A stretch of DNA of 60,482 bases, filler included, from Globobulimina sp. (lineage: Eukaryota), in assembly GCA_003354225.1 (NCBI GenBank). It is 16 parts of 16 records of this genome, joined end to end, with 100 filler letters (N's around TTAATTAATTAA, not from the genome) between each part and the next. Parts side by side here need not be neighbours in the genome. Positions count along the whole stretch, not along the records: positions 7,587 to 11,277 come from PIVH01002257.1; 15 more parts are not named here. One strand, written 5' to 3'. The notes beneath the pieces were generated by a model. It was not told the DNA's origin, ran no database searches, and worked only from the letters and a program-made list of their open reading frames with translations. The position numbers and the translations under genes are program-made. Below, in pieces: positions 3,695 through 56,701 of this stretch (its first letter is position 1; each line of letters begins with the position of its first letter).

Positions 3695-3794
3695 NNNNNN
3701 NNNNNNNNNNNNNNNNNNNNNNNNNNNNNNNNNNNNNNTTAATTAATTAANNNNNNNNNNNNNNNNNNNNNNNNNNNNNNNNNNNNNNNNNNNN
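3695..3794. other. Artificial contig linker (44 N + TTAATTAATTAA + 44 N); first of 15
   Basis: Identical 100-nt spacers also start at 7487, 11278, 15069, 18859, 22648, 26435, 30222, 34007, 37790, 41573, 45356, 49139, 52921 and 56702. The 12-mer puts stops in all six frames. Confidence 0.99.
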
Positions 3795-7486: not shown

Positions 7487-7586
7487 NNNNNNNNNNNNNN
7501 NNNNNNNNNNNNNNNNNNNNNNNNNNNNNNTTAATTAATTAANNNNNNNNNNNNNNNNNNNNNNNNNNNNNNNNNNNNNNNNNNNN

Positions 7587-9525
7587 ATTAACTCTATCTA
7601 CCAATTTAGACAGGGGATATGAGCCATCAGCACATAGTATCTGGTTAATTGTTGGAAATAATGAACGGATTATGTCATATAACATACCATCCAATTCATG
7701 GACATATCATGGCACGTTCACTACCACATTGCAATTAGGTGTAGTGACTGCACAATGCTCAGCTCAATGGGGTGATGATAGCATAATGTTTATAGATGCA
7801 GGAACGTTACGACAATTTTCATTTAATTCTATTGCATTGACAAATACAAACAATCCCTTACTTCATCCCCGTGAAGCACCATGTGTTGCCATAATATATT
7901 CAGATTGGATATTTGCAACGGGCGGTGTGATTAAATTTGCAGATGCAGAAAATCCTATTAATTATGAGAGCAGTTATCTGCAAATACTTGATAATAGAGG
8001 ACCAACTGCATATTGGTATAGAGGGCCAAATATGATTGATAGCCGTGCCCAACATGCTTGTGTTGCGCATAATGGTTATATGTATGTATTTGGTGGAGTC
8101 TATGCATTTGCACCTTCAGGTGATGTCTTTGCCCGTGTATCATCAGAAAAAATATATATTGGGGACATGCCAAATATTGGATCATGGTCCAACATTGATT
8201 ATATTCAAGGTTCAAATGTGCATTATCACAGAGCTGTTGTTGACGATTTATACAATCAAATATATCTAATTGGAGGAAGAGATAGTTATGAAGGTATTGC
8301 ATCCGATAATATACAAATATATGATATATCCACGGATACCATGGAATTGCAGAATGGAGCGGGTCGGCTAAACACTGCGAGGTCATCACCTGCGGTCGTT
8401 ATCATTGATCATAAAATTTATGTATTTGGTGGATTAGATCCTGTTGGCGGTGAGTATGCATCATGGGAAACATCAAATATATTAACATTTCATCCAACAG
8501 CATCGCCAACAAATACAACATATTTCCCAACATATTTCCCAACAAAATCACCAACAAATATTCCGACAAAGTCACCAACATATTTTCCAACAGCATCGCC
8601 CACATATTTCCCAACAAATACAACATATTTTCCAACATATTTCCCAACAAAATCACCAACAGATATTCCGACATATTTCCCAACATATTTCCCAACAATC
8701 AGTCCAACTTTAAACCCATTAACACTTAACGCAGATGGTGCAGTTGGAACAACTTCTGATTCGAATAAAGTTAGTATTGACGAGGAACAAAATAATGGAA
8801 ATAATATACGGATTACAGGAATGACATTAATATTATTTATTGTTATTGGTGTATTTGCTGCCATTATTGTTGTTGGCTGTATTTTATTTTTTCTTTATCG
8901 GTCTAAACTAAAGTCAATTTTAGCAGCAATCGAATTAAACAGCAGTCCCGAAGGTATGCAGTGTGCCATTTGATTTAGAATGTATATATTAGAGATTTCC
9001 AATTGCCACTTATTAAATCCCATTAAAATTGGAAATCTCTATTCAAAATAAAAAATTGCCATACTGCGTAAAGAGGATACTGACGTTTGTTATGATGGTA
9101 TTGACAATATCCAATCAGACAATATAATCTCAAATGATAATGATTTAATTAGTATGGTTAACACAACACAATGCGTTGATCGTAGTGGAGATTCAGGAAA
9201 AACTGATGGTAATGTTTATGATAACAATACATTGGATGGCCCCGTATCTGTTGGTCAGACAGACAAAGAAAAACATGCGGATCTATATGCAATGTCAGCT
9301 GCTGCAGTGATACAATCGGCGCAATTGGATGAACAGATGGCCATAGAAGAAAGGAATAAAGAAGAGAGTCAAGAGGAAGGTTTCAATGTTGATCAATTTT
9401 TTGCTGCGGAAAAGAGTGAATCAAATGAGTTGAATGAAAATAATACAACAACTCGTGATGGGAGAACAACAATTGGTGGTGCTAATGATGTAACTCATGG
9501 TGGAGATGATGTACATAATCAGTGA
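7587..9525 (+). CDS. Kelch-repeat type I membrane protein with Pro/Thr stalk (5' truncated); intron 8954-9073
   Basis: Repeated YVFGG/YLIGG/FATGG Kelch motifs, then PTxxPT repeats, a single TM helix (LILFIVIGVFAAIIVVGCILFFLY) and an acidic tail. Confidence 0.8.
8491..8712 (+). repeat. Coding tandem repeats of about 12 nt (CCAACATATTTC-like) encoding a PT(Y/K)(F/S) mucin-like stalk
   Basis: Direct repeats visible in DNA; translation PTYFPTKSPT repeated. Confidence 0.9.
8990..9041. repeat. Perfect 15-bp inverted repeat with TA at both ends inside an intron (mini-MITE-like hairpin)
   Basis: TAGAGATTTCCAATT (8990-9004) and AATTGGAAATCTCTA (9027-9041). Confidence 0.8.
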
Positions 9526-9610
9526 CTTGTTATATATGTGTGTATTTTCTTTAAATAGTTATATATTTGTTTTTATTTGTTTGATTGGCCACGTAAAGCA
9601 ATAAGAAAAG

Positions 9611-11277
9611 TCAATAAAATTCATTACAATTACACTTACCATCATTAAATATATGGACACGATTTGAGTCAGACACAACAAATCTTCTATTTTCCAATTT
9701 ACTCACTAATTTTATAAAACTATGACAATCCGCACATATCCTCAGATTTTTATTTATTACAATTTCGTATTCTTTTGTTGTAGTCAATAAACCATAAACC
9801 AACGCAATTTTTTCACTATGTCTTAACAAAACATACTCTTTGGTTTCATTTTTAAATTTATTCAGTTCCCTTGTTATTAAATTAATATCTGGCTTATATT
9901 TAAATGGTTCTTTCATTAATTTCCCAACGATTTCATTTAGTTTCTTATCAATTTCATCATATTCCTTATATTTCCGATAATGATCACCAGCGATAAATGT
10001 ATGAATTTCTCCATTAATATCAATCTCCGAAATCGCTTTTCTTTGATACTTATCCAATCCTTTTCTTTTCATCTCATCCCTAATCTCATTCTTTTTAATA
10101 AAATTATTATTTATTCCATAAATATTTGATAACAAAATCGATGTCGACGCCAAATGTCTCCCTTTATTCAATATGTCATTCATAAATCTATCATTTATTT
10201 CCTTATGAACTTCTTCTGCAAACATCTCATTCTTATATTTTATGCAGCCGCTCATCAATGAGGTCCACATCCCTTCGTAATAATGATTATTTGTATACTT
10301 TTCATATTGTAATATCAACTCTTTTGCCTCTGACAATTTCCCACTGCGAGAGTAGCAATCCACGAATGCTGATACTAAATATGAATCATATTTCATTGCC
10401 ATTTGCGTAATATCATTATTCCAAACATTTACTGCTGTTTCCAACTCACCGCAATGACCACAGGATGAGATCATTAAAATGAATGTGTTCTTATCCTTCT
10501 TAACTCCTTCAACCTCCATTAACTTATAAATCTCAAATGCTTTATCAATATCACCATTCCTCCCATGTGCGTGAATGAGCGCATTCCACAGATTTATCTC
10601 TGTCAAATATTTATGATGTTGCTTTTGCTTTATTTCATCAAATATTTGCTGACAAATCTGTAAATAGCCACATTTGCCATATAGCTCAATCAGATTTATT
10701 TGAATTTCAGTTTCCTTTAAAATCCATGATAAGTAATTATTGTTTTTTAATTCATCATGTATTTGTTTACCAAAATGATAGGCAGTGCATTGGGTGCATG
10801 TTTTTAACGCAATTGCATAACATACAGTATCTGCTCTTATTTTGTTATTAATGGTATTTAAGTTTTTAAATAAGTGCAAACATTCTTTATTCCAATTGTT
10901 GTGATAATACGCTTCCATCACAGCACTTAACAAAACAATATCTTTATCTTTGTCATTAATGCTGGAATAAATGGATAAAACTAGATCCATTTTCAAACAG
11001 TTTCCATATAAATCAATCAACGTCGTGGCAAATTTCAGTCGCATTTTATGATCAAATTCTGGAGCAAAAACATTTATTTTTGAATGTATTGTTTGACCAC
11101 ATTCATAATCACACAGATTTGCAGATGATTGCAATGCTAATAAGTGGGTTGTATCATTGTGCAAAGACTCAAATTGATTATAAACTTGTATTGAATGTTT
11201 AAACCAGTCGTTGTCGTTTAGGACAGTCATCACTGCATTGATACTCACTGTATCTTTAAATAAAATCGAATCAAAAA
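9611..11277 (-). CDS. PLS-class pentatricopeptide repeat protein with E1/E2 and DYW-type cytidine deaminase domain (5' truncated)
   Basis: P/L/S-type repeats (WNALIHAHGRNG, GKQIH, LIELYGKCG, VDCYSRSGKLSEA); E2 LLSNIYG; PG-box-like SEIDINGEIHTFIAGD; HSEKIA, KNLRICADCH, D..RVHIF.DGKCNC; C-terminus EFY. Confidence 0.95.
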
Positions 11278-11377
11278 NNNNNNNNNNNNNNNNNNNNNNN
11301 NNNNNNNNNNNNNNNNNNNNNTTAATTAATTAANNNNNNNNNNNNNNNNNNNNNNNNNNNNNNNNNNNNNNNNNNNN

Positions 11378-12042
11378 ATTTTAACCCGCTACAGAATAAT
11401 CCTAAGAGTAAATGGGTCTCACCCGTATAGGTCATCTGACTCTGCTCGTCCCAAAATCTACATTAATTGACGAAAAGCATCTTTTAAATCACGCAGAGAA
11501 ACGTAATCATATTTCAACAATAAAGTAACATATTTACGAATGTTTGGAAGTGTGGGCATTTTGCAATTTGCCTTATTAATCACATCATTAATGGCTATAG
11601 TTCGACGGGTGGCAAATGAACCATGTCTTGCCACTCGTATTTCTGTCATTAGATTTGTGTCATTGTCCTTCTTTGGGACACACAATAAATTCAAGTTATA
11701 ATGTAATTGTTTGCCAGTTTTTGTGATATATGCTTTTTTTGCTTCTTTTACCATTCTTGTTAATATTGCACGTAGTTCTCTTTTGTCCCTGACAATATTG
11801 GAAACGTGTTTGCATAGTTTCGACGGATCTCTATTATTTAAATATAAAGGATAACCATCCTAAATCAAATTGATTTCAATTTCACCATTTGGGTGATCCG
11901 CTAAGTAGTCATGGAATAGATTTATATTAAAATGTTGTTTTATGGTTGGTGGATGTTCCCAAAGTCGTACTAATTCTTGGAGTAAAACAGCACATTCAGA
12001 GTCGATTTCTGTGAGTTTGGGAATTACTTTCTCTGTATACAA
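11378..12042 (-). pseudogene. Reverse transcriptase N-terminal fragment with in-frame TAG stops
   Basis: ORFs 11860-12042 and 11458-11754 share one frame, separated only by TAG 11860-11862. A second TAG at 11458-11460 follows DLKDAFRQLM. Confidence 0.75.
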
Positions 12043-14850
12043 ACATAGCGGGTTAGTTTATTATATAGGGAAAGTTTGAGAGTCTGAAAGAAAAAACACT
12101 TGTTCGTTGAATAAATCAAAGGAATGAATTTAAATTTGGTGTCAAATGTATACAATAATTAATTAAAGATTGTCGGACAATGTGGTATTGTGTGTGTTGT
12201 TGAACCACAGATGCAAATGTGTAGTCTTTGTTGATTTCCAGCATTGCATGATAGACAACTTTTGTTTGAACAATTCTCTTCATCCATATGATGAGCTGCA
12301 CACATTTTATCCAGTTCAGCTTTGTGTTTTTTATTTTTCAATCTGGAGCGTGTAATCTCCATCCAACGATGTAATCTGTTGGTCCTTGTTTTTCTTTCCT
12401 GTGGAGACAATCCCGTGCGTTTTATAGTAATTTTATGTTTAGGGATTGCTCCGAATTCCTCCATCGTTGATGGTTTCGTGTCAGATAAATGTTTCTGATC
12501 TTTTAATAATTTGATATGATCATAATCACGAAACATATGTTGCATCCATAAATCATCCGATCTCGCAGCACTTACTTTTTCCAAATTTAATTGTTGGCGT
12601 AAATGTGTGTTTTGTGCATCCATAACAATGGATGATCTCTGTTTGAATGATCTGTTAAATACTTGATTTATAAAATTATAAAATAATTGTGCATCAATCT
12701 GAGGATCATCGGCTAAAATCTTGATAATTTTCTCGAATTCACGCCAATCATTGGTCGCTACGGACAACATTCGGGAATAGCATTCAAATTCTCTCAAAGG
12801 ATTACATTTAATCCTCTTTTTTGTATATAAATTTGTTAATTTTGTTACAATTAATTTCCTCGAATGCGATATATGTAATCCCCAAATTGTAATTAATCGC
12901 TGTACTTCGGTAATGAATTTGAAAATATTTTGTTTATCTTTAAATATATTATTAATTGTCGATGTGAGCCGCGCTCGGATTAAATTTTGAGTATTCTCGG
13001 GTATCTCATTAAATTCAACATAATCTCAGAAATTGTGTTTGGATTTACTCGCCAAATAAAGAGTAATAGTTCCAATTCAGAATCGAAACGTTTGTCCAAT
13101 TTTGAACGTGTTCGTCTCTTCTGTTTCTTGCGTGGATTTGATGTATCACTACCTTCGGAGTCAGTGTCTATATATAAATTATATGCAAAGGTTTTAATTA
13201 TAAAAGTTCGTATATTTGAACTATAAACAAAGCAAAATGACTCAATTTGTGCCTATGGTGCTATGTGTGGCATCGTGAGATTTTGTTTGTAATATTGACC
13301 TTTGTGAGCTATAGTGACTATGTTAGGTATTTACCGTTCGTCGTAGCTACAAATATGGTCATCAATATCAATAAAAGTGAATGAAAAGGAGATAAAAAAC
13401 AGTATTCACACAAACGTTTCTCTCCAATTGAAACGTTTTTGTGCGATGTCTCTGAAACAAAGGACATCCAAAGTCATACAAAAGATTTCGAACAAGCGTA
13501 TTGTTCAAACGACTCACATGACAGAAGGAGACAGACCAACTTACCTTGGATCTCATCGACAATTTGCTTTCCTCTCTTCTTATTCGCCATTTTTTGATAT
13601 AAATCTTGGTGAAGGGAATGTTGTTGATGTGTCCGGGTTTCGTCTGCAATTAATTCGAAGCCCAGCACTGTTTTATTTACATAATGTTCGTGACTCCATC
13701 TTGTCACACCACGTTTGTCGGAGTTTAACATATCATCCACCGACTGTTGTTGTGGTGATTTGAGCGATGCATTCTTCGATGATAAAATGCCTAAACTTAA
13801 GGCTAAATCATCCTGTTTCTGCATTATGGCACGGAGATATTTTGACGGTGGCGGGGTTCGTTCAGAGTCGCCTGAATGTGGCGGAGATGACGGCATAGGA
13901 TATTTGAATTCGTCGTCCTCCTCTAAATCCACAATCGCACCGTCCCTTTTTCGTTTCTTTTGCGGTTTGAATAGTTCCAATTCATCCCAGTCAGTGTATG
14001 AACGTTCTCTGACTTTTTGTTTCTGAATGAATTGGACTTTCCCTTTTTTAAATTGATAGGTTTCTTTGGGGATAATATTGAGCGATTCATATGATTTAAT
14101 CCGCTCACCATTGTTATCAATAAATCCTTTCTTCTGTAAAAAATCGAACTGTTTGACATAAATTTGAATAACGGACGTTTGCAGTTCACGGCCTTTGAGG
14201 CTTTAAAGCCGACCAAATTTATGCGATGCGGGTGTCAAATGATGATACACTCTGTGATTGACTAAGAATTGCATCATACGGTGATTGTATGCATTCAATT
14301 CGCCTTTGACATCGTTGTAAATTAATGATTGCTTACGGTAATTTGCAATGTTTTTAATTAAATCGGACCTATAATCAATGACTGATTTTAATAAACTCAT
14401 AAATTGTGAGTCATATTGATTGGTCTTGTCAGCTAAAACGAATTTTGAATATTTAATTTTCTTAATTCGGTCCAAATTTGAATTGTCGGAATCTTCGGAC
14501 TTTTTCTCTTTTTCAATTTCGATTCTCTCGTCTTGGATGCCGAAATAATCCGATTCTTCCGGACGAGGGCTCTGTGGGTCAACCTCTTCTCTGTCGATGG
14601 CTGAATCATCCTCATTGGAGTCTGAATCTTCACCACGTGGCCTCACCACTGGATCCTGCGGAGGATTAGGAAAGTCCCAGTTGGCGACCATCGATGGGAT
14701 ATCATATTTCTCCTTCCTCGCATTCCAAGTACGGCTTCGGCCCGTTGTTAATTTGGGATAGAACCAAATTACATTCGATAACAATGCTCGAATTTCATTG
14801 TGATTTACTTTGACATGATCTGGATTTGCCGCTTCATACGCTACTGCCTT
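11378..14850 (-). mobile_element. Degenerate DIRS/Ngaro-like retrotransposon: gag-like ORF1 with terminal Cys/His finger followed by RT N-terminus; 3' part lost at contig edge
   Basis: ORF1 ends C..HH...C....C..C...HICICGSTTHTIPHC. The downstream frame reads LADHPN..LI*DGYP...CVPKKD...IRVARHGS...AINDVI...RDLKDAFRQL, matching DIRS-type RT motifs 1-3. RNase H and tyrosine recombinase are not in the contig, so the subgroup is inferred. Confidence 0.72.
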
Positions 14851-15168
14851 GAAATACAGTAGTGTTCACGATCAGAGGTACGCATATTAGTACTAAAATA
14901 TATATTTTATCTAATCATATATTTACGAAATGGTGGAGCTGTCAAGGGCTAATATATATAATATATACTAATATATATATTATATATATTATATATTATA
15001 TTCAAATATATTATCAAAATATAACTCGGGCATAATTTTAAGGGGAAAAATTAACAAGCGAAAATGCGNNNNNNNNNNNNNNNNNNNNNNNNNNNNNNNN
15101 NNNNNNNNNNNNTTAATTAATTAANNNNNNNNNNNNNNNNNNNNNNNNNNNNNNNNNNNNNNNNNNNN

Positions 15169-15427
15169 TTTTGTAATCGAGTCACTTGACCATTGGTCCT
15201 CTTCCAATATTTTACTATCATTGCTTGATACAGATTCCTTAATTATATTAATTTAGTTTGAATAATTGCGCGCAGTTTATAATAAATTACCGTTACGGCG
15301 TTACCTGGCGTTGTTCATCGTAGCTTGATGATAATGATTTTTGCAATGCGTGATCTCTTTTTTCCGAGGCTTCAACATCACAGCCACAACAATAACAATC
15401 CAGAAGACTATCGTTTCGATTTCCCAT
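15169..15427 (-). CDS. N-terminal fragment of a probably dual-acylated protein (MGNRNDSLLDCYCCGC...); intron 15238-15304
   Basis: ATG-Gly start, Cys cluster, phase-0 GT-AG intron; the frame stays open to the contig edge. Not in the ORF track. Confidence 0.5.
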
Positions 15428-15529
15428 GATCAACAATCTACAGTTGTGGTTTTTTTTAAACTTAATTCAAATCTTTTACTGGCAGTCATTATATATATCA
15501 AAAATACAAAACATTTCAAGGTAAATATG

Positions 15530-18500
15530 TTATGATTGTTTCAATCGATGTCTAGCTCTTATTTCCGGTAAATTAAACACAGAATATTCCTGACCAGAAA
15601 TACACATATCGACTGTAACAAAATTTTTATTCATATAATCCCCTAATAATAATTTATAACTCCCCGCAACAATTCTTTCATGACCCACTTCATTCGTAGT
15701 TGATATAGAATACGGCGAAACACTCAACGTTACATTTCTAGACTGACCCACAGCAACATATGTTCTTTGAAAGTCAAATAATTTTATAGGCACTGCATCA
15801 TTATCGTCGGATGTGACAAATCCTAACACCACACAATCAGAGCTCATCTTGCCAGTATTCGTGACTTGAACAATAAATCCAGTCTCATCCGAGACCTCTC
15901 CATATTCCATCTGACCAATCCTCGTCGCATCAATACAGCCATTTGCATCCCCAACAGTATTATTATAATACTTATATGCAAAAGTCGTGTAACTTAAACC
16001 AAATCCAAATGAGTACAAAGCAGTCCCTTGATAATACCTATAAGTTATCCCACCATTATTCCTCAATGACATATCCATAATACTCGGCCTAGCCTTCGTC
16101 AATGAAGCATCATAAACAGTCACTGGCAGCTTTCCAGCCGGCGACACATCTCCAAATAGAATATTATTGATAGCATCGCCACCCAGCTCGCCGGGATAGA
16201 ATGCTTCGACAATGCCTGCAACATTGGCTTTAGGCCAAGTAATATCCAGCGTTCCGCCATTAATCAGCACCAAAACAGTGTTTGCGTTGGCAGCAAATAC
16301 CTGCTTCAATAATGTCAACTGCTGGCCTACAAACTGTATATTCTCGCGGTCCCACCCTTCGTCCTCGCGCGCCGCAGTAAACCCTTGGCCTGGATGCAAA
16401 CCTAAAATGACCACAGCGACCTCAGCTGCTCGTGCTGCAGCAACAGCTGCGCCAAATCCATGTGTACTGTTACATAAAATATCGCAAGCTTGCGTGTATG
16501 TGGCCGATATTTTTCTATCCAACGCGGCCTGATATGGAGAGTGCGCATTGACCAATGTATTGCTTCCCACATATATGGACAACATATCCTGTGTGGCATT
16601 CGCATGCGGCCCGATAAATGCTACTTTGCTTGACGTTGACAAGGGTAATATGCCATTTTCGTTTTTCAACAAAACAATGCCTTGTTCTGCTGCGGATAAC
16701 GCTAACTTACGATGTTGCGGCGAGTCTACGCGATCTGCACCGTATTTGTTGTAAATGGGGCCGGGATGGTCCATCATGCCCAAATCGAAGCTTTTGTGGT
16801 ATATTCTGCCGGCTGCTCGGTCAATGTCTTCCAAATGCACAACGCCTTGCTGATAGGCGGCGGGAAGGTATTCCATATAAAACGAACCGCAGTTCGCGTC
16901 ACATCCGCCTTGAAGCTGTAATATATAATATAGAATGCAGTATAAATATATATGTATAACCAATAACATACAGCAACTCGGGCTTGTTGTGATTTGTTTC
17001 CATTGTAATTTTGGTCAATATAACGACTGAACGCAGGATCTCCGATGGCACCACAATCGCTGACGAAAAAGCCGTCAAATCCCCATTCCGCTCTGGCGAT
17101 TTCATTCATAAAATAGTCATTGCCGCAGGCTGGCATATTGTTGATGGCGTTGTAACTGCACATTATGCTCTCTACGCCACCAACTTCAATCGCGGTCCTC
17201 CACTGAGGCCAATAATATTCGACTGATAGTTGAAGATTATAAAGCAAAGTGACATGAATTCAAAATCTATATTGACATAAATGTACCTACCTTGATCTTG
17301 TGCGGATACATTGGCATTAAACGACCCTCTGTCTGTGCCATGATTGCCTTCTAGATCATAATCAGCATAATGTTTTGCAGTGGACACAACTTTCAGATAT
17401 TTACCATCTTCTCCCCGTTGCATATACCGCACGTATTGAGCCACATACTCGCCAGTTAAAAACGGGTCTTCTCCGGGCGTCTCCTGTCCTATTCAATGCA
17501 TACTATATTCGTTATGTTCAATTCTGTAAATATGAAATCATAAACATGCCTCGTCCCCATCCTATGCAGTATATCCAATACAAAATATAAAGTATATACA
17601 TTTCCTGCATTACATACTTGGGTCTCTGAACAAATTAATATCCGGAGTCCTAATCAAATAACACAAAGCGTACGAGTACGACACAAGAAATGCAACAAAT
17701 TACCAATTACAAACCAAAAAAATGTGCCAACAATGCCCTGGTTGTGTAAAGCTCGCGCTTCATCAGATATTGCCGTCGCAACTTGCTTCCAAAGCGTTCT
17801 GTTGAAGCTAGCTCCCAATAACGTGGCATGCGGGAAACTGGTGGGACAGCCAGTATTGCCGTTCACTTTGGCACCGCAGCCACAAATAACTCCATGCAAT
17901 GCCTCGTTGAATTGGTTTGGCGGAACTCCCAAACGCGGCACTCCATTGTTACTGTTTTGTAAGTTTGCAATTTTCTCGCCGACAGACATGCGAGAAAGCA
18001 AATCTTTGACTCTTTCAGCTGTGGAAAGTTGCGAGTTACAGTATGGATAACTGTCATATGGCGCTTGTGTGCAATTCGCAAATGGATAATATGCAGCGGT
18101 TATACATAAACTTGAATTACTTAGACTTGAAATATAATGTGCCGTCGGATTGTTTAATCTGAATTTCTGTAAAGAGTTGGATGCATCGCAGGCTTCCATC
18201 GAAAGGATGGAGTATTCGTCGTTGCCGATTGCTTCTAGGCAGGTTTTGGTAGCGGCGGACTGGAAAGCTACTGCGTCATTGCCTAAGTCAAGAATATTGA
18301 AATCTTGATTGTAATATAGGTTCGGATCATAGCCCCTGTTCGTAATCGGTGTTTGTGTGCAAAATGTGGTATGTTGTACATATTACATACCATAGATGAG
18401 GAACTGTTCCTTTCTATTTAAATATATTATTATTTATAAGTTTTATTATATGCAGATGGACAGAAGATATATTTAACGGACCCCACAACCACTACAATCA

Positions 18501-18679
18501 ATGACTTTGTCGCTATAACTTGCATTGTAAAGATTCAATGTATAAGTTGTAGTGCTGGAGTTTACACTCTTTGGATTCCATTCTTGATATCCTGGATAGG
18601 TTCCACATTCGTTGAGTGTGAATGGATTGCCGTTGGGCAGATCACCCTTTGATGAATGAATCAGGCATATCAACGTCAT
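15530..18679 (-). CDS. Glycoside hydrolase family 3 beta-xylosidase/glucosidase with N-terminal ricin-B-like lectin region; multiple short introns
   Basis: NEALHG, TSFP, spliced [43 protein letters not shown] (nucleophile Asp), EGWDR, YPGELGG, FGFGLSYT and an Fn3-like tail. The start codon is approximate. Confidence 0.93.
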
Positions 18680-18958
18680 ATGAGATAATGCAATGCAGAT
18701 ACAAAATGCCAACCTTCTCAAAAAGGTTCAGTATTTGTGACTAATGTCTTGACTGAGTAAGGCGTGTGTCTTATTTAGTTTTGCCATTTGTTTGCCCCGT
18801 TTTAAGTAAAATGAAAGAAGTTTTCAGAATTTTTAACCACAGATTTCGCAGATTTCACNNNNNNNNNNNNNNNNNNNNNNNNNNNNNNNNNNNNNNNNNN
18901 NNTTAATTAATTAANNNNNNNNNNNNNNNNNNNNNNNNNNNNNNNNNNNNNNNNNNNN

Positions 18959-24354: not shown

Positions 24355-25629
24355 TTAATATTTAACCATATAACATGGTAATATTTGGTCAACATCAAAA
24401 ATAACAATTTCCGATCCATATCTGCCATTTGCACGCATATGACTGTCATAACCGTTTTTCTGTTCACATCCAGTCTCTGTTTGTATCATTTTAAATGAAT
24501 TTCCCAACATAATTTTACATAAAAAAAGACCATTTCCATATGATTGTGATACATTTGCAAATTCACTAAAATAAATACCAGCGCCATACCAACCTTTGTC
24601 ACCACTATGCGAAGATAACTTGGATAAATCAAAATTATTCTCAATAATTGATGCCATATTTGATGTTTTTGTACCATGCCATGCCAATATAATATTAATA
24701 TTATCTTTGCCAAGTCTTGCTGTCATTTCTTTCTTTTTCTCTTCAAATTTATTAATTAATCGCGGATTTATAACATAAGTTATTTCATTTAATGTTTCTT
24801 TCATTTTATTACAATTTATCTCCAACATTCTTCCTCCAGATCGAATATACTGCGACTCACAAATACGAAAATGTGCATCTCCTTCGTCGCTTTCATCATA
24901 AAATCTTCTACGAATTAATCGACATTTAATAATTGCACCACTTTTCATCGCATTATCATACATTCCCTTTATGTCAAGTCTCGGAGTTGCATCCTCATCA
25001 CAGTCATTATTTGTATCTGTACATATATTTGACATTGGTATCGGTGTTGGAACCATTTGTGGCGGTAATGTTGGAATCATTGGTGGTTGTAATGTTGGAA
25101 AAGTTGGTGTTGACACGAATGCAGATGTTTGTGGTGTAAGATCCCATTTGGAATTATTATTATTATTGTACATGTTGTTAAGTGTTGGCGTAATTGCTTT
25201 TGAATAAGAAAATGACTGTGACTGTGACCGAGATCTTGATCTTGATCGAGATGTACTTCGTTGGTATGTGCTATTTGAGCGAGATGGTGATTGTGACGTT
25301 GAATATGATCTATATTTATATCTTTTTCTGCGTGATTGTCTTTTATGGTTATATTTATATTTGTGTCTTTTTTTGGATTTATATTTATTATCTTTGTATC
25401 CATATTCAATCAATAATTGTCTACCATGAAATTGATGACCGTCTAATTTACACATTGCATCTTTTGCATCTTTGGAGTGTTTATATTCTACAACACAACA
25501 ATTTGTGCTATGTCTTGTTTCTGTCAATGAAAACGATAATAATTTGCCATACTCACGGAATAGCAGTTCAACGTCTTTTGGATATATTTTTGTTGATATA
25601 TTACGAACATATAATCTATGTTGCGACAT
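24355..25629 (-). CDS. RRM + RS-rich + PARP catalytic domain fusion protein
   Basis: RLYVRNI (RNP2), CCVVEY...DAKDAM.KLDG...GRQLLIEY RRM; SRSRSRSRS; then LAWHGT, WYGAGIYFS, LCKIMLG, GYDSH, EIVIFD..QILPCY PARP signatures. Intronless; ATG at 25629 is the likely start. Confidence 0.9.
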   Translation of the reverse strand: MSQHRLYVRNISTKIYPKDVELLFREYGKLLSFSLTETRHSTNCCVVEYKHSKDAKDAMCKLDGHQFHGRQLLIEYGYKDNKYKSKKRHKYKYNHKRQSRRKRYKYRSYSTSQSPSRSNSTYQRSTSRSRSRSRSQSQSFSYSKAITPTLNNMYNNNNNSKWDLTPQTSAFVSTPTFPTLQPPMIPTLPPQMVPTPIPMSNICTDTNNDCDEDATPRLDIKGMYDNAMKSGAIIKCRLIRRRFYDESDEGDAHFRICESQYIRSGGRMLEINCNKMKETLNEITYVINPRLINKFEEKKKEMTARLGKDNINIILAWHGTKTSNMASIIENNFDLSKLSSHSGDKGWYGAGIYFSEFANVSQSYGNGLFLCKIMLGNSFKMIQTETGCEQKNGYDSHMRANGRYGSEIVIFDVDQILPCYMVKY

Positions 25630-25899
25630 AGCATAAAATTGCGGTGTGAGGAGAAAAATGGAGCAAGATGAAAATGACAAAAGCTGACAAGTTTTCTACA
25701 GTAAAAACTGCCCTTTGATTTTTGTTTGAAAGCAAATAGGTTAATCTTCCGTGTGTGCGAGGATAATGTAGTTCTAACAGCTATGGATCTGCAGTTATGG
25801 ATGCATTTATGTTAAGTAGTCAAATAATTAAATTGAATTAGATAAAAAATAAGATAAATTAATAATTACTTATTTACACAAATACGCACAAACAAAATG

Positions 25900-34106: not shown

Positions 34107-37100
34107 TCAAAGAAATCGAGGAAGCAAAAACAAAAAGAAATCCTGATGTCGCAAATAATGATGATAATGATAAGAAGCCACGATTTTCTTTGCTATTAAA
34201 AGCTATTATCAATATACGTAACGATGAGGAAGATGATGACTTGGATTTTTTAAATGAAATCGTTGATCAAGAGATTGAAAACAAGCAAAAAAATGTACAG
34301 CAAAAGCAAAAGGAACAAAAAATAGATATAACTAGTATGGAAATAGAGAAATTAGAAAAAGTGGATGAAGATATCCATGTCGATACAGATACAGAAATAG
34401 AAATAGACATAGAAACAGATACAAATACAGACACACAAACATTAAGAACAATGATAATTGCCTTAATTAATGATGCTCGATTTGAATGGACAATAATTAT
34501 ATGTATTTTATTAAATTCATTGATATTAAGTTGTGAGAAATATCCAATGAGCAACCAACGAGAAACATTTCTATTAATATCAAATTACATATTTACAATA
34601 ATATTTACATTTGAAATGGTATTAAAGATAATTGGTTTATCAGCAGCTGGATATTTAAGTGATTCATGGAATATTTTCGATGGCTTAATTGTTGTCATAT
34701 CATTAGTCGACATTTGTTTGCCATCTTCGAACTCATCATTTACTGCGCTGAGAGCATTTCGTCTTTTACGCGTTTTTAAATTATTAAAGTTTTTACATGG
34801 CTTACGAGAATTATTAGAAACTGTTTTGTCCACATTAACAGATTTAAAATATTTTTCGTTTATTTTGGCTTTATTTATATTTATCTACGCTTTAGTGGGC
34901 ATACAGTTGTTTCAACAAAAATTTACATTCGACGGTATTACCTCACGAGCGAATTTTGATTCATTTTGGTGGTCTTCGCTTACTGTATTTCAAATATTAA
35001 CCGGCGAGAATTGGAATGAAATATTATATGACGGGGTAAAAGGAACAGGTTGGTGGTCATCAATATATTTTATATCTTGTTTTATTTTTGGAAATTATAT
35101 CATTTTGTCGTTGTTTATGGCGATATTATTGGGAAATTTTGAAATTATACCTGGTGATGAAGAAAATCAACGCGAATCGAAAAAAATTCGAAATAAAATT
35201 AAAGAGAAAATTATTAATGTTTTAATAAAAATATGTAAACCATTATCTTTTCTACAAAATAATAATAATAATGCTGTCAAAAACAATCAAATTGCAATTG
35301 TAGGTGTCGAGGAAAAACGAGTAATGACAAAAAATGCATTGTTTGTAGATGATGTTGGTGACGATATGATTATTAATTCGATGCATATGCCGACAAATGA
35401 AACAGCGCTATGTTGCATTGACAATGAGCATTTTTTGCGTAAAATTTGTATACAAATTGTAGGATCTGTATATTTTGAAAGATTTATTATGTTTTTGATA
35501 TTAATATCATCGATATTATTATGTTTGGATGAACCAAAATTGCATAAAAATTGCAAATTAAAACAATTTTTACATGTGGCCGATTGGGTAATTACTATCT
35601 TATTTGGCATAGAAATGATGATTAAAATTATAGCTTTGGGCTTAATACATCACAAAGATTCATATTTGCGCAATGGATGGAACAAAATGGATTGTTTTAT
35701 CGTACTTATATCGATAATGAATTTATTTTTAAGCGGCTTAGAATTCATTAAAGGTTTTCGAGCATTACGCGCATTGCGGCCGTTACGAATGATTTCGAGA
35801 TTCGAGAATATGAAATTAGTGGTAAACAGTATATTTTCTACCATTCCCGCTTTGGGAAATGTTGTATTAATTACATTATTATTTTTTTATATTTTCGGAA
35901 TTATCGGAGTTCAACAATTTAAAGGTTTATATTGGAATTGTGTTTCTACAGATGATCACTATCAAATTATCAATAAAAATGAAAATCAATGTATTGGAAT
36001 AAACGAAAGTTGGGAACATTTAACAATTGGCAATTTTGATAACATATTTAGTTCAATGTTATTATTATTTGAATTAGCAACGTTGGAACAATGGCCATCT
36101 ATTATGTATGCCGCAATTGATTCGAGAGGACCAGGATTGGCTCAACAACGAGATTTTATGCCATCGCGATCAATATTTTTTGTTATTTTCTTATTAGTAT
36201 GCTCATTTTTTGTATTATCATTGTTTGTCGGTGTCGTAGTCGACGAATATCATAAATATCACGATAAATTTACATGTGGATGCATTACGGAGAAACAACG
36301 TGAATGGCTGCAGTCAGTTCGCCATCTGATAAATGCTGATACGAGTTCAAAATTAGTGGCCCCGCAGTCCGGATATAAAATCAGAAGATTGCTGTTTCGC
36401 ATTGTAACAGATGATAAATTTGAATTAACTGTCACGATATTAATTGGTTTAAATATTATTGTAATGTCGTTATCGTATTATGGATCGCCTAGCACATATG
36501 CACAAATATTGGATGTGTTACATCATGTATTTTCATACATTTTTATTTCTGAAATGATTATAAAATGGATTGCTTTGGGATTGAAGCAATATTTTCGTGA
36601 TAAATGGAATCAATTTGATTCATTTATTGTGGTTTGTTCCATTGTTGAACTCGAAGCAAATTCATTAATTTCATTTGATCCAACAATAGCCAGAGTATTG
36701 CGGATTGGCAGGATTTTCAGAGTGGTTAAAAGGGCAAAATCATTAAAACATTTATTTTCTACACTCTTGAACAGTTTACCTGCATTATTTAATGTAGGCA
36801 TATTATTATTATTATTATTTTATGTTTATGCAGTTGCGGGAATGTCATTATTTGGCAATGTTTTACATGGACAGTATCTGAATAACAGAGCAAATTTTGA
36901 ATCTTTTTATATCGCAATGTTAACATTATATAGAATGAGTACTGGCGAGTCATGGAATGGATTATACCACGACTGTTCCATCACAAATACAAATAGTAAC
37001 TGCAGCCATGATGATGGAGACAATTGTGGCTCTCCAATGTTAGCTACAATATATTTTTTATCATTTTATATACTTTCTGCAATGGTTATGTTGAATGTTT

Positions 37101-37549
37101 TTGTTGCAGTGGTTTTGAAGAATTTTGAAGAACAAATTGAATCATCATCAAAACATCTAAAAATTCCCACCAATGTTATGGAACAATTTGAGAAATTATG
37201 GCTAAAATTTGCTGAAAAAGATGGTGAATTGATGAAAGCAGATCGATTAGGAACATTTTTAAATTTATTACCGGAACCATTGGGATTGCTAAATAATCCT
37301 AGATTTGGTAAAGATTTACAAAAATGTATATATAAATTACAAATTCCTCAATCAAATGGTTTTATACATTATATAGATTTAGGCACAACGTTAACATTAA
37401 GCGTATATGGCACCGATACCTCAATGATTCCCGAAGAGAATGAATTTATGAAATATACACGATCCCAAATGTTTAGAAAATTCCCAAACTTTAAGACATT
37501 TAAAAAGAAACAAACAGTCTGCGGTTTAAATCCTCATGCTTCAGAATAA
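34107..37549 (+). CDS. Four-domain voltage-gated cation channel alpha subunit, Cav-type filter; repeats II-IV (5' truncated), intronless
   Basis: S4 segments (LRAFRLLRVFKLLK, FRALRALRPLRMISR, ARVLRIGRIFRVVK); pore loops LTGENWN, ATLEQWP, STGESWN; EF-hand-like tail with LPEPLG. Confidence 0.96.
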
Positions 37550-54199: not shown

Positions 54200-56701
54200 T
54201 TAATATATAACGCCTCTGCCAAAATACTCGGCCACCGTATTGAAGGCATCGCCGGTGTTATGCGCCGCTTTCAATTGTCCAAAAAAGGAGTCGTGATCGC
54301 CTTTGGAGCGTTGCATCATTTCCTGTTTTTCGAATATCTGCTTATGCGATTGAGAGCATTTCGGACATTTCGGATTGGATTTGTTGTACAGACATCTTTC
54401 ATGCAACGAGTGTCCGCACAAGAAATGAACCGTCGGCAACTCCAATGGCGCCAAACACGCGCAACATTTGGTGGCTTGGAAGGTTTTCGGTTTGCTCGTC
54501 AAACTCACGATGGATTTCTTCATTTTGTTGATCTGACTCTGCAACTCATGAATGGAGATTTCGTCCTGCTCAATTTCCTGGTTTTGCAGCGACAAATCAT
54601 TGATAATATACTCGCGAATCACCGACAACGACACAGACGAAGACGACAACAGCTCCACCACCATCAGCGGAGGAATTAAGTTCAACTTCGAGATCTCCGA
54701 CAAGCACAACTGAATACACTCGATATTGTCGTCGGCGTCGCCCTTCTTCTCGTCCTGCTTCTCCTCCTCATTCCCACTCCCATTCCCTTTGCTGTTCTCG
54801 TTGATGAAGTACGTAAAGGCACTGATCCACAGCGACGGGTCCTGGCTACTAAAACGCGAACACGTCTCAATGATCTTGCTGTTGTCGCTCTTGTCCGTGT
54901 AATGAGAGATGATCTCATGATACAAATGCAGCAATTCGTACAAATAGATCACCGCAGACTCGATGCCGTACATTTTGCTCAAACCCAAAGCGTGCGTCGC
55001 ATCGTATTTGCTCGTCTCTGTCCGCAATATGCGCAGTATCTGATTGCTGATACTGTCATATTCCTCCATTCTTTTCTTCCACTTCAAATTGCAGGCTTCC
55101 CGCATATAGATCTCCAGCAACGTATTGTACACAACTTGCGAGGCGGCGCTCGTATTCGATTCCGGCTCGATGAGAAACTCCAGAAAGTCCCTCAACTCCG
55201 CCGGCTGCCGCACGAATAAATGGATAAACTGCTCGGGGTTCGCCGCTTTGTGCTCGCTGTTGTTGTTGTTGTCGGTGCAGAGCACCTTAATCAGCTCGGT
55301 GGTGCCTTTCGGCTCGTTTTCGATTAAGGTCTTTCCAATGCGCAAGATGGACTTCTCCGCGTCCACGAAGGCCAACAGCGAGATATATTTGAGCGCGTCC
55401 TGGTATTTCCGCAGGTTCTTCTGCGATTTGCCCGCTTCCTCCAACAAAATGTCCAGATAGATCTGGTGTTGCTGCTTTTGTTTGGCCAAAGACCGAGCGT
55501 GCCGCAATAAGCCCGCCTCGCGACACACGCGGATCGCAGTCATGACGTCGAAGTTGTACTTGATGTTCTTGTCGCTCATATCCTCGTCGATGTTGATGAA
55601 CTCGTTCAGTTTGCTCGAATCCTTCAACTTCGTATAGCAGTTTAGGAGCAACGTCGTGTGGTCGGAGGTGGGCACTCCGTATTTGTGCAAACGCGCCAAG
55701 TATTCCGTCAGGTTTTTGATTTTCTGCGCGTCCAAAAAGCGCCGGATCACGTACGACGGCTCGATGGTGGAATGCTTGTCGATGGTTTGCAGATATTGCT
55801 CCATCGCCTGATTATAATCTTGTTTCTCGTACAGGTAATCGCCATAAATGCAGTAATATTCGATGATTTTGGTCTGATTGCAACCCTCAGAGCGAGCCAA
55901 TTGGATGGCTTTCTCGTACAAATTGTTGCGGAAAAACTCATTCAATTTCTCCTGCAAGTCTTTGTCGCGCAATTTGATTAAATATTTGTTGGTGAGTATG
56001 AAGACGGAGCCCCATTCCGATATAATTGAGATCAAATCGTCAAACTGCCGTTGAAACGCCACATATTTATTGGTATTGTCATAAATGCAGACTTCCACGC
56101 GCTTATTCGCAGTCATTTTGGTCTTGATTAAGGTGACCACGATTAAGTACCTTCGAAAGGAAGACACCATTTGTTTGTGTCCAGGGAAGGCATGTTCGCC
56201 GCGGACCTCTTCGCCTAAAAACATGTGCACCGTCTCGCTCTTAGCTACGATCAACTCGCCAGTCTGCTCATTGATGATAGAACAGCCCAAATCGCAGCCG
56301 CCTGTGCTGTCGATGAAGATGCACGGCATGTTACGGTCGAATATATGGAAGGACATAATGGCGTGCACTGTTATCACATATAGCAGTCTATGCTGGTCTT
56401 CCTTTTCTAAGTAATGTAGGCCAGTCACTGCGTGCGGCCCCTCTTTGGTTAATTTAATGGGACGGATCTTCTCGATCGCTAGCAACGAGGGGCGGTGTTT
56501 TAGATTCACATTAAATACCAACACCACGCCATTGGCACAGCCAACCGCTATTTGGGAGCCTGACGAGGTGGCTGTTAATGCGGATATTGGTAACCTGCAT
56601 GGATGTGAATGTGTGAATGTGTGAACGTGTTAGTGTGTGCAACGATGTATGTATATGTATTTAACTCCATTTGTGAGTCAGGAAAGAGGCGAAATGATTT
56701 T
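54200..56701 (-). CDS. VPS11: Vacuolar protein sorting 11 (HOPS/CORVET core subunit), 5' truncated; intron about 56595-56665
   Basis: YGDYLYEKQDY..AMEQYLQTI, EPSYVIRRFLDAQKIKNLTEYL, DHTTLLLNCYTKLKD, RING-H2 (CCAC...VHFLCGHSLHERC...CPKC) and terminal VAEYFGRG. Confidence 0.96.

Follow-up and report, generated by a model that had tools for sequence, protein, structure and literature searches.

Pentatricopeptide repeat (PPR) proteins carrying a DYW domain are among the best-understood programmable RNA editors, and mitochondrial C-to-U editing has also been found where DYW genes occur outside plants (in Naegleria, Acrasis and the paradinids). Foraminifera are ecologically dominant and geologically important organisms; the first descriptions of their mitochondrial genomes date from 2021-2023 and used DNA alone. 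Here we describe a gene for a PLS-type PPR-E1-E2-DYW protein in a window of 60,482 bases, the whole stretch of DNA analysed, which is joined from contigs of the Globobulimina sp. assembly GCA_003354225.1. We consider it likely that the gene is nuclear and belongs to a foraminiferan, or to a very close associate present in all the foraminiferal data sets examined, and that its product, by analogy with known factors, would serve as a site-specific C-to-U editing factor in the mitochondrion.

Published DYW-type PPR genes from outside the plants already cover Amoebozoa, Discoba, Fungi, rotifers, malawimonads and paradinid Rhizaria, so that an earlier note on this DNA, which described them as only sporadic there, overstated their rarity. 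In the titles and passages of the literature covered here, the described cases comprise Naegleria, Acrasis, Physarum, malawimonads, diplonemids, rotifers, some fungi and paradinids (PMC4758236, PMC4202320, PMC11946409, PMC13386178, bioRxiv 10.64898/2026.09.04.749523). Among protists, these include Naegleria gruberi, Acrasis kona, Physarum polycephalum and the malawimonads (Knoop and Rudinger 2010 and Schallenberg-Rudinger 2013, via PMC4758236 and PMC11946409; Fu 2014, PMC4202320). In Naegleria, it was through DYW-type PPR genes that mitochondrial C-to-U editing came to be discovered (PMC4758236). In paradinid Ascetosporea, they accompany massive C-to-U and A-to-I mitochondrial editing, C-to-U editing having never been reported in rhizarians before that 2025 paper (PMC11946409), and the paradinids are the only rhizarian precedent that we found for a PPR-DYW gene together with mitochondrial editing. 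Foraminiferal DYW proteins or such editing were not found in the titles searched or in the passages covered of PMC4758236, PMC10127745 and PMC8589990, though they may be among the 31 rhizarian DYW domains counted by a 2026 survey of NCBI nr (PMC13386178). DYW-type PPR proteins outside plants are thus already known, and the window gene adds a foraminiferal member.

The window protein is similar to the land-plant PLS PPR-DYW proteins, represented by Arabidopsis OTP86 (At3g63370; 7o4e/7o4f) and the synthetic 9kfx with RNA, in its order of P-L-S triplets, P2-L2-S2, putative E1 and E2 motifs and DYW, and in the HxE...CxxCH centre followed by the C-terminal H/CxC residues. It differs from them in being only 25-31% identical overall and in having repeats of 32-39 residues. 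Moreover, it contains three extra residues before the HSE region and no P-G pair, reads VSDSNRVHIF for VRDxNRFHHF, ends in EFY and carries an I/E pair in the S motif before P2.

With the other protist families it shares the character of a small, lineage-specific, non-plant DYW family in which the zinc ligands are conserved and the terminus varies. The families of Physarum, Naegleria and Physcomitrella cluster by taxon with no sign of recent transfer (PMC4758236). The lineage of the window gene is a different one (Rhizaria: Foraminifera), and the Physarum sequence P0154 falls outside its clade; in addition, the Physarum proteins are described as mostly 'LS-type' (PMC4758236), whereas the window protein has the P-L-S order. 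The paradinid Ascetosporea belong to the same supergroup, Rhizaria. Their DYW domains were grouped with those of fungi because both have a two-residue deletion, with one to three genes per strain (PMC11946409), and the foraminiferal family is larger; this separation follows the description in that paper rather than its sequences. The bdelloid rotifer DYW genes and the diplonemid PPRD1 are likewise non-plant DYW deaminases with intact catalytic motifs. The Adineta ricciae protein P0123 is 39% identical to the window protein in the DYW domain and lies outside its clade of 23 sequences, and PPRD1 is a single-copy protein that has an atypical PPR array and acts on more than 100 sites (bioRxiv 10.64898/2026.09.04.749523), in contrast to the multi-paralogue family with a regular array observed here.

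An uninterrupted reading frame cut by the contig end

The open frame is located where the earlier note had placed it, on the minus strand at 9614-11275, and runs for 554 codons without stop or frameshift. Its 5' edge lies two bases before the contig end at 11277, and it contains no plausible start codon. The earlier note missed this cut: position 11277 is the end of the contig, followed by a linker, and not the beginning of the gene. About 62 N-terminal residues are situated beyond the contig end, as residues 63-606 of the 606-residue orthologue P0001 match 11275-9614 at 62% identity in tblastn. This orthologue starts with MLLFRSLWYR, and its N-terminus is basic, with no acidic residue among the first 20. 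In tblastn with seven foraminiferal paralogues, 9614-11275 was the only region of the window to be matched.

A gene that abuts the contig end and lacks its start codon and N-terminus in the window could be a truncated or dead copy. This is highly improbable, since the cut point coincides exactly with the contig end and a contig of the sequencing run X2 continues for 588 bases further, while the 554 codons are uninterrupted and both the catalytic residues and the RNA-reading positions are conserved. We regard the locus as a genuine and apparently functional PPR-E1-E2-DYW gene of a foraminiferal family.

The DYW deaminase domain

The C-terminal domain matches the Pfam family DYW_deaminase (PF14432) with an E value of 2.5e-29 and 101 bits (cut-off 24), covering profile positions 2-93 of 93. 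Among solved structures, it matches the DYW domains of OTP86 (7o4e, E 1.3e-25) and DYW1 (7w86, E 6.6e-23). A structural comparison with Foldseek places the domain on chain 7o4e_B of OTP86 with a TM score of 0.85 on the target and 40% identity.

The earlier note had reported HSE at 9812-9820 and CADC at 9725-9736, and both motifs are found exactly there. Its further statement that all residues of the zinc deaminase are kept also holds: HSE and CADCH are present and the second zinc site is intact. Eight residues (H486, E488, C514, C517, H518, H541, C548 and C550) are invariant in all 40 aligned sequences from foraminifera, plants, Physarum and a rotifer, and the column of D516 is invariant in the same alignment. 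H541, C548 and C550 correspond to the residues that we take, after the OTP86 structure paper, to be the ligands of the second zinc in plant DYW domains.

PPR array and putative E motifs

The alternating P, L and S repeats described in the earlier note are supported by collinear alignment with the PLS proteins 9kfx and 5iww. For the tandem PPR repeats, four Pfam profiles score above their cut-offs (PPR 3.1e-23, PPR_2 1e-12, PPR_1 1.8e-07 and PPR_3 2.7e-06). The array is composed of the tail of an S motif and nine hairpins of 32-39 residues each, compared with the canonical 35/36/31. The motif borders are our own assignment, made from Pfam, from alignments with 9kfx and with the PLS9-PPR structure 5iww, and from the AlphaFold2 helices. 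A P2-L2-S2 triplet had been proposed as well; the protein is collinear with the P2-L2-S2 of 9kfx, and the best Pfam PPR stretch is located in this region. The signature residues WNALI, SSCGHCG and VDCYSRSGKLSEA are found in the window protein.

The synthetic PLS PPR-DYW protein 9kfx is the best match of known structure (E 2e-82). It is collinear over residues 161-544 of a 545-residue reading, and the alignment runs from the last S motif through P2-L2-S2, E1 and E2 into the DYW domain. The AlphaFold2 model, built from the 40-sequence alignment, has a mean pLDDT of 92.9 and a pTM of 0.91 and contains nine PPR hairpins, two E hairpins and an alpha/beta domain at residues 406-554. In the Foldseek search, 9kfx_A ranked first for this model (E 4.8e-24, TM score 0.71 over 561 columns).

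Putative RNA-reading residues

The code positions, taken as the 5th and the last residue of each motif, were placed by analogy with the plant consensus and are our own reading. Between the window protein and P0001, 17 of the 18 putative code positions are identical, against 346 of 543 aligned residues (64%) overall, and all 13 comparable positions are identical in P0002 of Bolivina argentea. Other code residues occur in the pair P0004/P0005, in P0003 and in P0118, P0004 and P0005 agreeing with each other at 14 of 17 shared positions. Such a pattern would be expected of orthogroups that each read a conserved RNA site of their own. The S motif that precedes P2 (motif F) is conserved as IQINLIELYGKCG and has an I/E pair at its code positions. 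With S2 set opposite position -4, the plant code would presumably assign a pyrimidine to position -12, G to both -10 and -9, and U to -6, counted from the edited C.

Relatives, phylogeny and source organism

The protein search returned 107 matches at E <= 0.001 (7999 candidates scored), the top eight being 36-74% identical. The best full-length matches are P0002 from Bolivina argentea (74%) and P0001 (62%), followed by P0003-P0008 (36-48%), which include proteins of Nonionella stella and B. argentea, whereas named land-plant proteins reach at most 31% over the full length and show 37-39% within the DYW domain. Of 28 relatives looked up, 11 carry an organism name, and nine of these are transcripts of B. 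argentea (P0002, P0007, P0127) or N. stella (P0005, P0006, P0118, P0120, P0129, P0173, with the cluster member P0260). The other two are P0154 from Physarum polycephalum and P0123 from the rotifer Adineta ricciae (CAF1212594.1), and the remaining 17 are ENA, Logan or JGI records. The 145-residue DYW domain alone, searched against 1.84 billion representative proteins, gave 2138 matches at E <= 0.001, 1267 at 1e-10 and 14 at 1e-30. A word search with the DYW domain only found eight proteins among 190 candidates and no further named protists.

A phylogeny of the DYW domain was calculated from 121 of 202 near-complete domains, namely all 51 that do not end in W, 39 named plant sequences and the hits P0114-P0174; the other 81 rows end in W, with no named plant row among them. 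The careful IQ-TREE search used LG+C20+F+G4 on 139 columns, and its main clade was recovered in quick trees too. The unrooted tree was built without sequences from Naegleria, Acrasis, malawimonads, fungi and paradinids. The window protein is located in a clade of 23 rows with an ultrafast bootstrap of 100 and an SH-aLRT of 96. This clade holds all seven Nonionella rows, which are its only named members, together with 15 unnamed rows and none of the 39 named plant rows. Within this clade, P0001 and P0114 group with the window protein (99/94). The termini of the 23 rows are composed of D, E, N or G, then Y, F, C, N or R, then Y or H.

The subclade containing the Bolivina protein P0127 is joined to the 23-row clade weakly (93/39), and the backbone elsewhere is poorly supported. 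Since the tree is unrooted and its backbone weak, it does not decide between an ancient and an acquired origin of the family. This second, smaller subclade is formed by P0126, P0127, P0069, P0163 and P0261, which end in DFF, DYF or DWW and show RD..RWHIF where the others have SD.NRVH.F. This suggests that foraminifera have at least two DYW subfamilies.

In total, at least six distinct members of the family are present in Nonionella and at least three in Bolivina. The best explanation of the relationships is that the window gene probably belongs to a lineage-specific family, of which each species has several paralogues. The earlier note called the organism probably a foraminiferan, which agrees with nine of the 11 named relatives being from Bolivina or Nonionella and with the named members of its clade all being Nonionella.

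Contamination by land-plant DNA, or recent transfer from a land plant, is hardly credible, despite the plant-type architecture and the fact that land plants are the most numerous among the matches. Identity to named plant proteins, at most 31% (37-39% in the DYW domain), stands against 62-74% to unnamed and foraminiferal proteins, and the separate clade (100/96) includes no named plant. As the earlier note had argued, a Kelch gene with an intron lies on the same contig (7587-11277) 85 bp away, the Kelch stop codon reaching 9525 and that of the PPR gene lying at 9611. This physical link joins the PPR gene, in which the fraction of G or C at third codon positions (GC3) is 0.285, to an intron-bearing gene of like composition, with a GC3 of 0.22. 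The claim that the gene is AT-rich like its neighbours can be judged within this contig only, since the other contigs of the window are no physical neighbours.

It is also very unlikely that the contig belongs to another eukaryote travelling with the foraminifera, such as prey, a symbiont or a parasite. That possibility draws on the named relatives coming from the transcriptomes of two species only, on the 17 of 28 relatives without an organism name, and on the mixed look of the assembly, in which GC3 ranges from 0.21 to 0.67 between contigs. Near-identical contigs are present in the runs of four studies, however, and the at least six Nonionella and three Bolivina members are more than would be expected from a trace contaminant. 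The composition of the PPR gene also fits the AT-rich majority of the window contigs, whose genes have a GC3 of 0.21-0.34. The EukProt relatives of the Kelch neighbour bear source names of the number_1 style that the Nonionella and Bolivina records have as well, a hint in the same direction.

Proposed editing function

By analogy with the plant and Naegleria proteins, the product of the window gene would be imported into the mitochondrion. Its PPR array would recognise a specific single-stranded RNA stretch, each motif facing one nucleotide and the P and S motifs reading it with their 5th and last residues. The DYW domain would thereby come to lie over a cytidine some four nucleotides 3' of the base that S2 reads, and the HxE/CxxC zinc centre would deaminate this cytidine to uridine. 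The earlier note suggested a possible PPR-DYW-directed mitochondrial editing system in this organism, and with the deaminase residues intact this is a fair inference.

Several observations weigh against the proposed editing function. At the position of the PG box, which is treated as required for editing in plants (PMC13386178), the P-G pair is gone and two residues are inserted, and this state is kept in three orthologues. The C-terminal EFY departs from D-Y-W. The 2023 survey of foraminiferal mitochondrial genomes reports no C-to-U editing, apparently having made no RNA-DNA comparison, as far as its passages tell (PMC10127745). The Pfam E_motif profile scores below its cut-off (E 0.051, 14.3 bits against 27.3). 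The readable code pairs are N/(N or D), T/D, S/D and N/D, so that only four or five of the nine motifs can be read, and the I/E pair of motif F fits no known rule. Moreover, the assembly seems mixed (the VPS11 gene on another contig has a GC3 of 0.67), and the foraminiferal label of the PPR gene therefore rests on its homologues and not on the name of the assembly. As the library types of the runs X2, X6 and X8 are unrecorded, and none of the data sets listed with the sequence is recorded as RNA, transcription of the PPR gene is only suggested. Finally, the missing N-terminus hides the targeting region of the window protein.

Among plant DYW proteins, some have a role in RNA cleavage, and there are editing factors that function in trans. 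With a PG box and C-terminal tripeptide that depart from the plant consensus, the gene could be genuine and its protein not itself an active editing deaminase, having instead a role in RNA stabilisation, cleavage or processing, or needing a partner in trans. The segment that the earlier note called PG-box-like contains no P-G and reads KYQRKAISEIDIN, in which YQRKA replaces the PG pair; the related YQR(L/T)A is found in P0001 and P0002. Paralogues P0004 and P0005 keep P-G (QPGISE), which makes the orthogroup of the window protein the deviant one, and P0003 and P0118 have PQGISE and IPAVSE at this position. The terminus is EFY and not DYW, as the earlier note had seen, and the literature searched holds no report of editing in foraminifera. 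Nevertheless, we judge an inactive deaminase unlikely. All eight zinc-site and catalytic residues are invariant, and two beta strands are still confidently predicted at the PG position. The altered PG segment is a fixed feature and not a sign of decay, because it is common to three orthologues, from three species. In addition, PG boxes and termini are variable in non-plant DYW domains in general (PMC13386178), and the 23-row clade ends in Y, H or similar while retaining the domain throughout.

Beyond a role for this single protein in editing stands the broader proposal that foraminifera, with an expanded PPR-DYW family of their own (two subclades, with Y- or F-type termini), edit C to U at a number of sites in their small, tRNA-less and divergent mitochondrial genomes, and that this has gone unnoticed as these genomes were read from DNA only. 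We see the case for this as evenly balanced. The retarian mitochondrial genomes described in 2023 contain 14-15 protein genes and no tRNA genes, with a conserved cox1 frameshift in miliolids (PMC10127745). If the proposal is true, published foraminiferal mitochondrial proteins, COI barcodes and some 'divergent' genes would in part be pre-edited versions, and the translation and comparison of these genes and barcodes would be affected. Foraminifera would then be the second and largest rhizarian case, with a bearing on whether DYW editing is ancestral or was spread by transfer. The conserved multi-member DYW family predicts edited mitochondrial genomes in foraminifera. As a further well-supported clade outside plants, the family also bears on whether DYW factors are ancient or were passed between lineages.

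Contig structure, the Kelch neighbour and other sequencing runs

The window is not one genomic piece but a chain of 16 contigs of 3681-3694 bases, arranged with the longest first, a point that the earlier note had missed. Thirty runs of 44 N are paired around the 12-mer TTAATTAATTAA, giving 15 identical linkers of 100 bases. Gene order and distances across the linkers are therefore meaningless, and neighbours are found only within 7587-11277. The features are listed in Table 1.

Table 1. Positions of the features in the window, counted along the whole stretch
Feature	Positions	Strand	Description and basis
Contig with the PPR-DYW gene	7587..11277		3691 bases; third contig; linker N44-TTAATTAATTAA-N44 on either side
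Artificial linkers N44-TTAATTAATTAA-N44	3695-3794, 7487-7586, 11278-11377 etc.		15 in total; N-run map
PPR-E1-E2-DYW coding region	9614..11275	-	554 residues; open at contig end
PPR array	10277..11275	-	Residues 1-333; S-motif tail, then nine hairpins, P-L-S, P-L-S, P2-L2-S2
PPR hairpins			Residues 9-40, 41-79, 80-112, 113-149, 150-188, 189-226, 227-261, 262-297, 298-333
P2-L2-S2 triplet	10277..10597	-	Residues 227-333; INLWNALIHAHGRNG..., KNTFILMISSCGHCG..., SYLVSAFVDCYSRSGKLSEA...
E1 and E2 (putative)	10061..10276	-	Residues 334-405; align to E1/E2 of 9kfx; two hairpins, helices 334-346, 350-388, 392-404
DYW cytidine deaminase domain	9614..10060	-	Residues 406-554; Pfam PF14432
PG-box position	10013..10051	-	Residues 409-421, KYQRKAISEIDIN; no P-G; two beta strands predicted
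HSE	9812..9820	-	Catalytic zinc ligand H486, proton-shuttle E488; aligned to HSE of 9kfx, 7o4e and 7w86
CADCH	9722..9736	-	Zinc ligands C514 and C517, plus H518
C-terminal segment H541-IFNDGK-C548-N-C550-N-EFY	9614..9655	-	H541, C548 and C550 invariant; termini of relatives compared
Stop codon TGA	9611..9613	-	After ...CNCNEFY
AT-rich spacer	9526..9610	.	85 bases between convergent stop codons
Kelch gene	7672..9525	+	Kelch propeller, PT repeats, hydrophobic stretch, acidic tail; Pfam Kelch families and PT repeat
Kelch gene, exons and intron	7672-8953 (exon 1); 8954-9073 (intron); 9074-9525 (exon 2)	+	GT..AG intron

The source material was compared in four sequencing runs as assembled contigs, in which the parts left uncovered in X8 and X6 are uninformative. 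Near-identical contigs (97-99%) span the PPR gene in runs of four studies, which are labelled as three organisms. In X2, a single contig of 2278 bases in the sense of the PPR gene extends from 588 bases beyond the contig end to 23 bases past the stop codon. X2 also carries the Kelch gene intron-free, as complementary DNA (cDNA) would, and its material looks like cDNA. The 120 bases of the Kelch intron are skipped by contigs of both X2 and X6, and the spliced frame is open for 577 codons. The PPR-gene contig of X2 ends at 9588 and its Kelch contig at 9600, where adapter sequence begins. Should these positions mark the ends of transcripts, the convergent messages would share about 13 bases, and their 3' untranslated regions would be very short.

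The Kelch gene resembles a surface-protein gene and has PT repeats of the PTYFPT type. Its close relatives are only three EukProt entries, with 57, 57 and 42% identity. One source-run contig skips 105 bases (8527-8631) within the PT repeats, which is probably a variation in repeat length.

On the other contigs of the window, two genes stand out by their GC content. The fifteenth contig (53021-56701) has a GC of 0.41 and carries a VPS11 gene on the minus strand at 54203-56629 with a GC3 of 0.67, and the fifth (15169-18858), also with a GC of 0.41, carries a gene for glycosyl hydrolase family 3 (GH3) on the minus strand at 15533-17014 with a GC3 of 0.40. These GC-richer contigs may represent a second organism in the assembly. 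The contig at 11378-15068 contains long open frames on the minus strand (11461-11859, 12162-13025, 13477-14202 and 14206-14865) with no Pfam match. The first of these resembles the start of a reverse-transcriptase domain (...VPKKDNDTNLMTEIRVARHGS...), and the contig may be a retroelement fragment; lying on another contig, the PPR gene is not linked to it. A frame of 1146 codons on the plus strand at 34109-37546 encodes a multi-domain voltage-gated cation channel, with Ion_trans matches in three stretches (E 2.1e-173) and a PKD_channel match (1.7e-24), and fills its whole contig with both ends open. On the minus strand at 24358-25695, an open frame fuses an RRM_1 domain (1.9e-11) with a PARP catalytic domain (3.5e-15).

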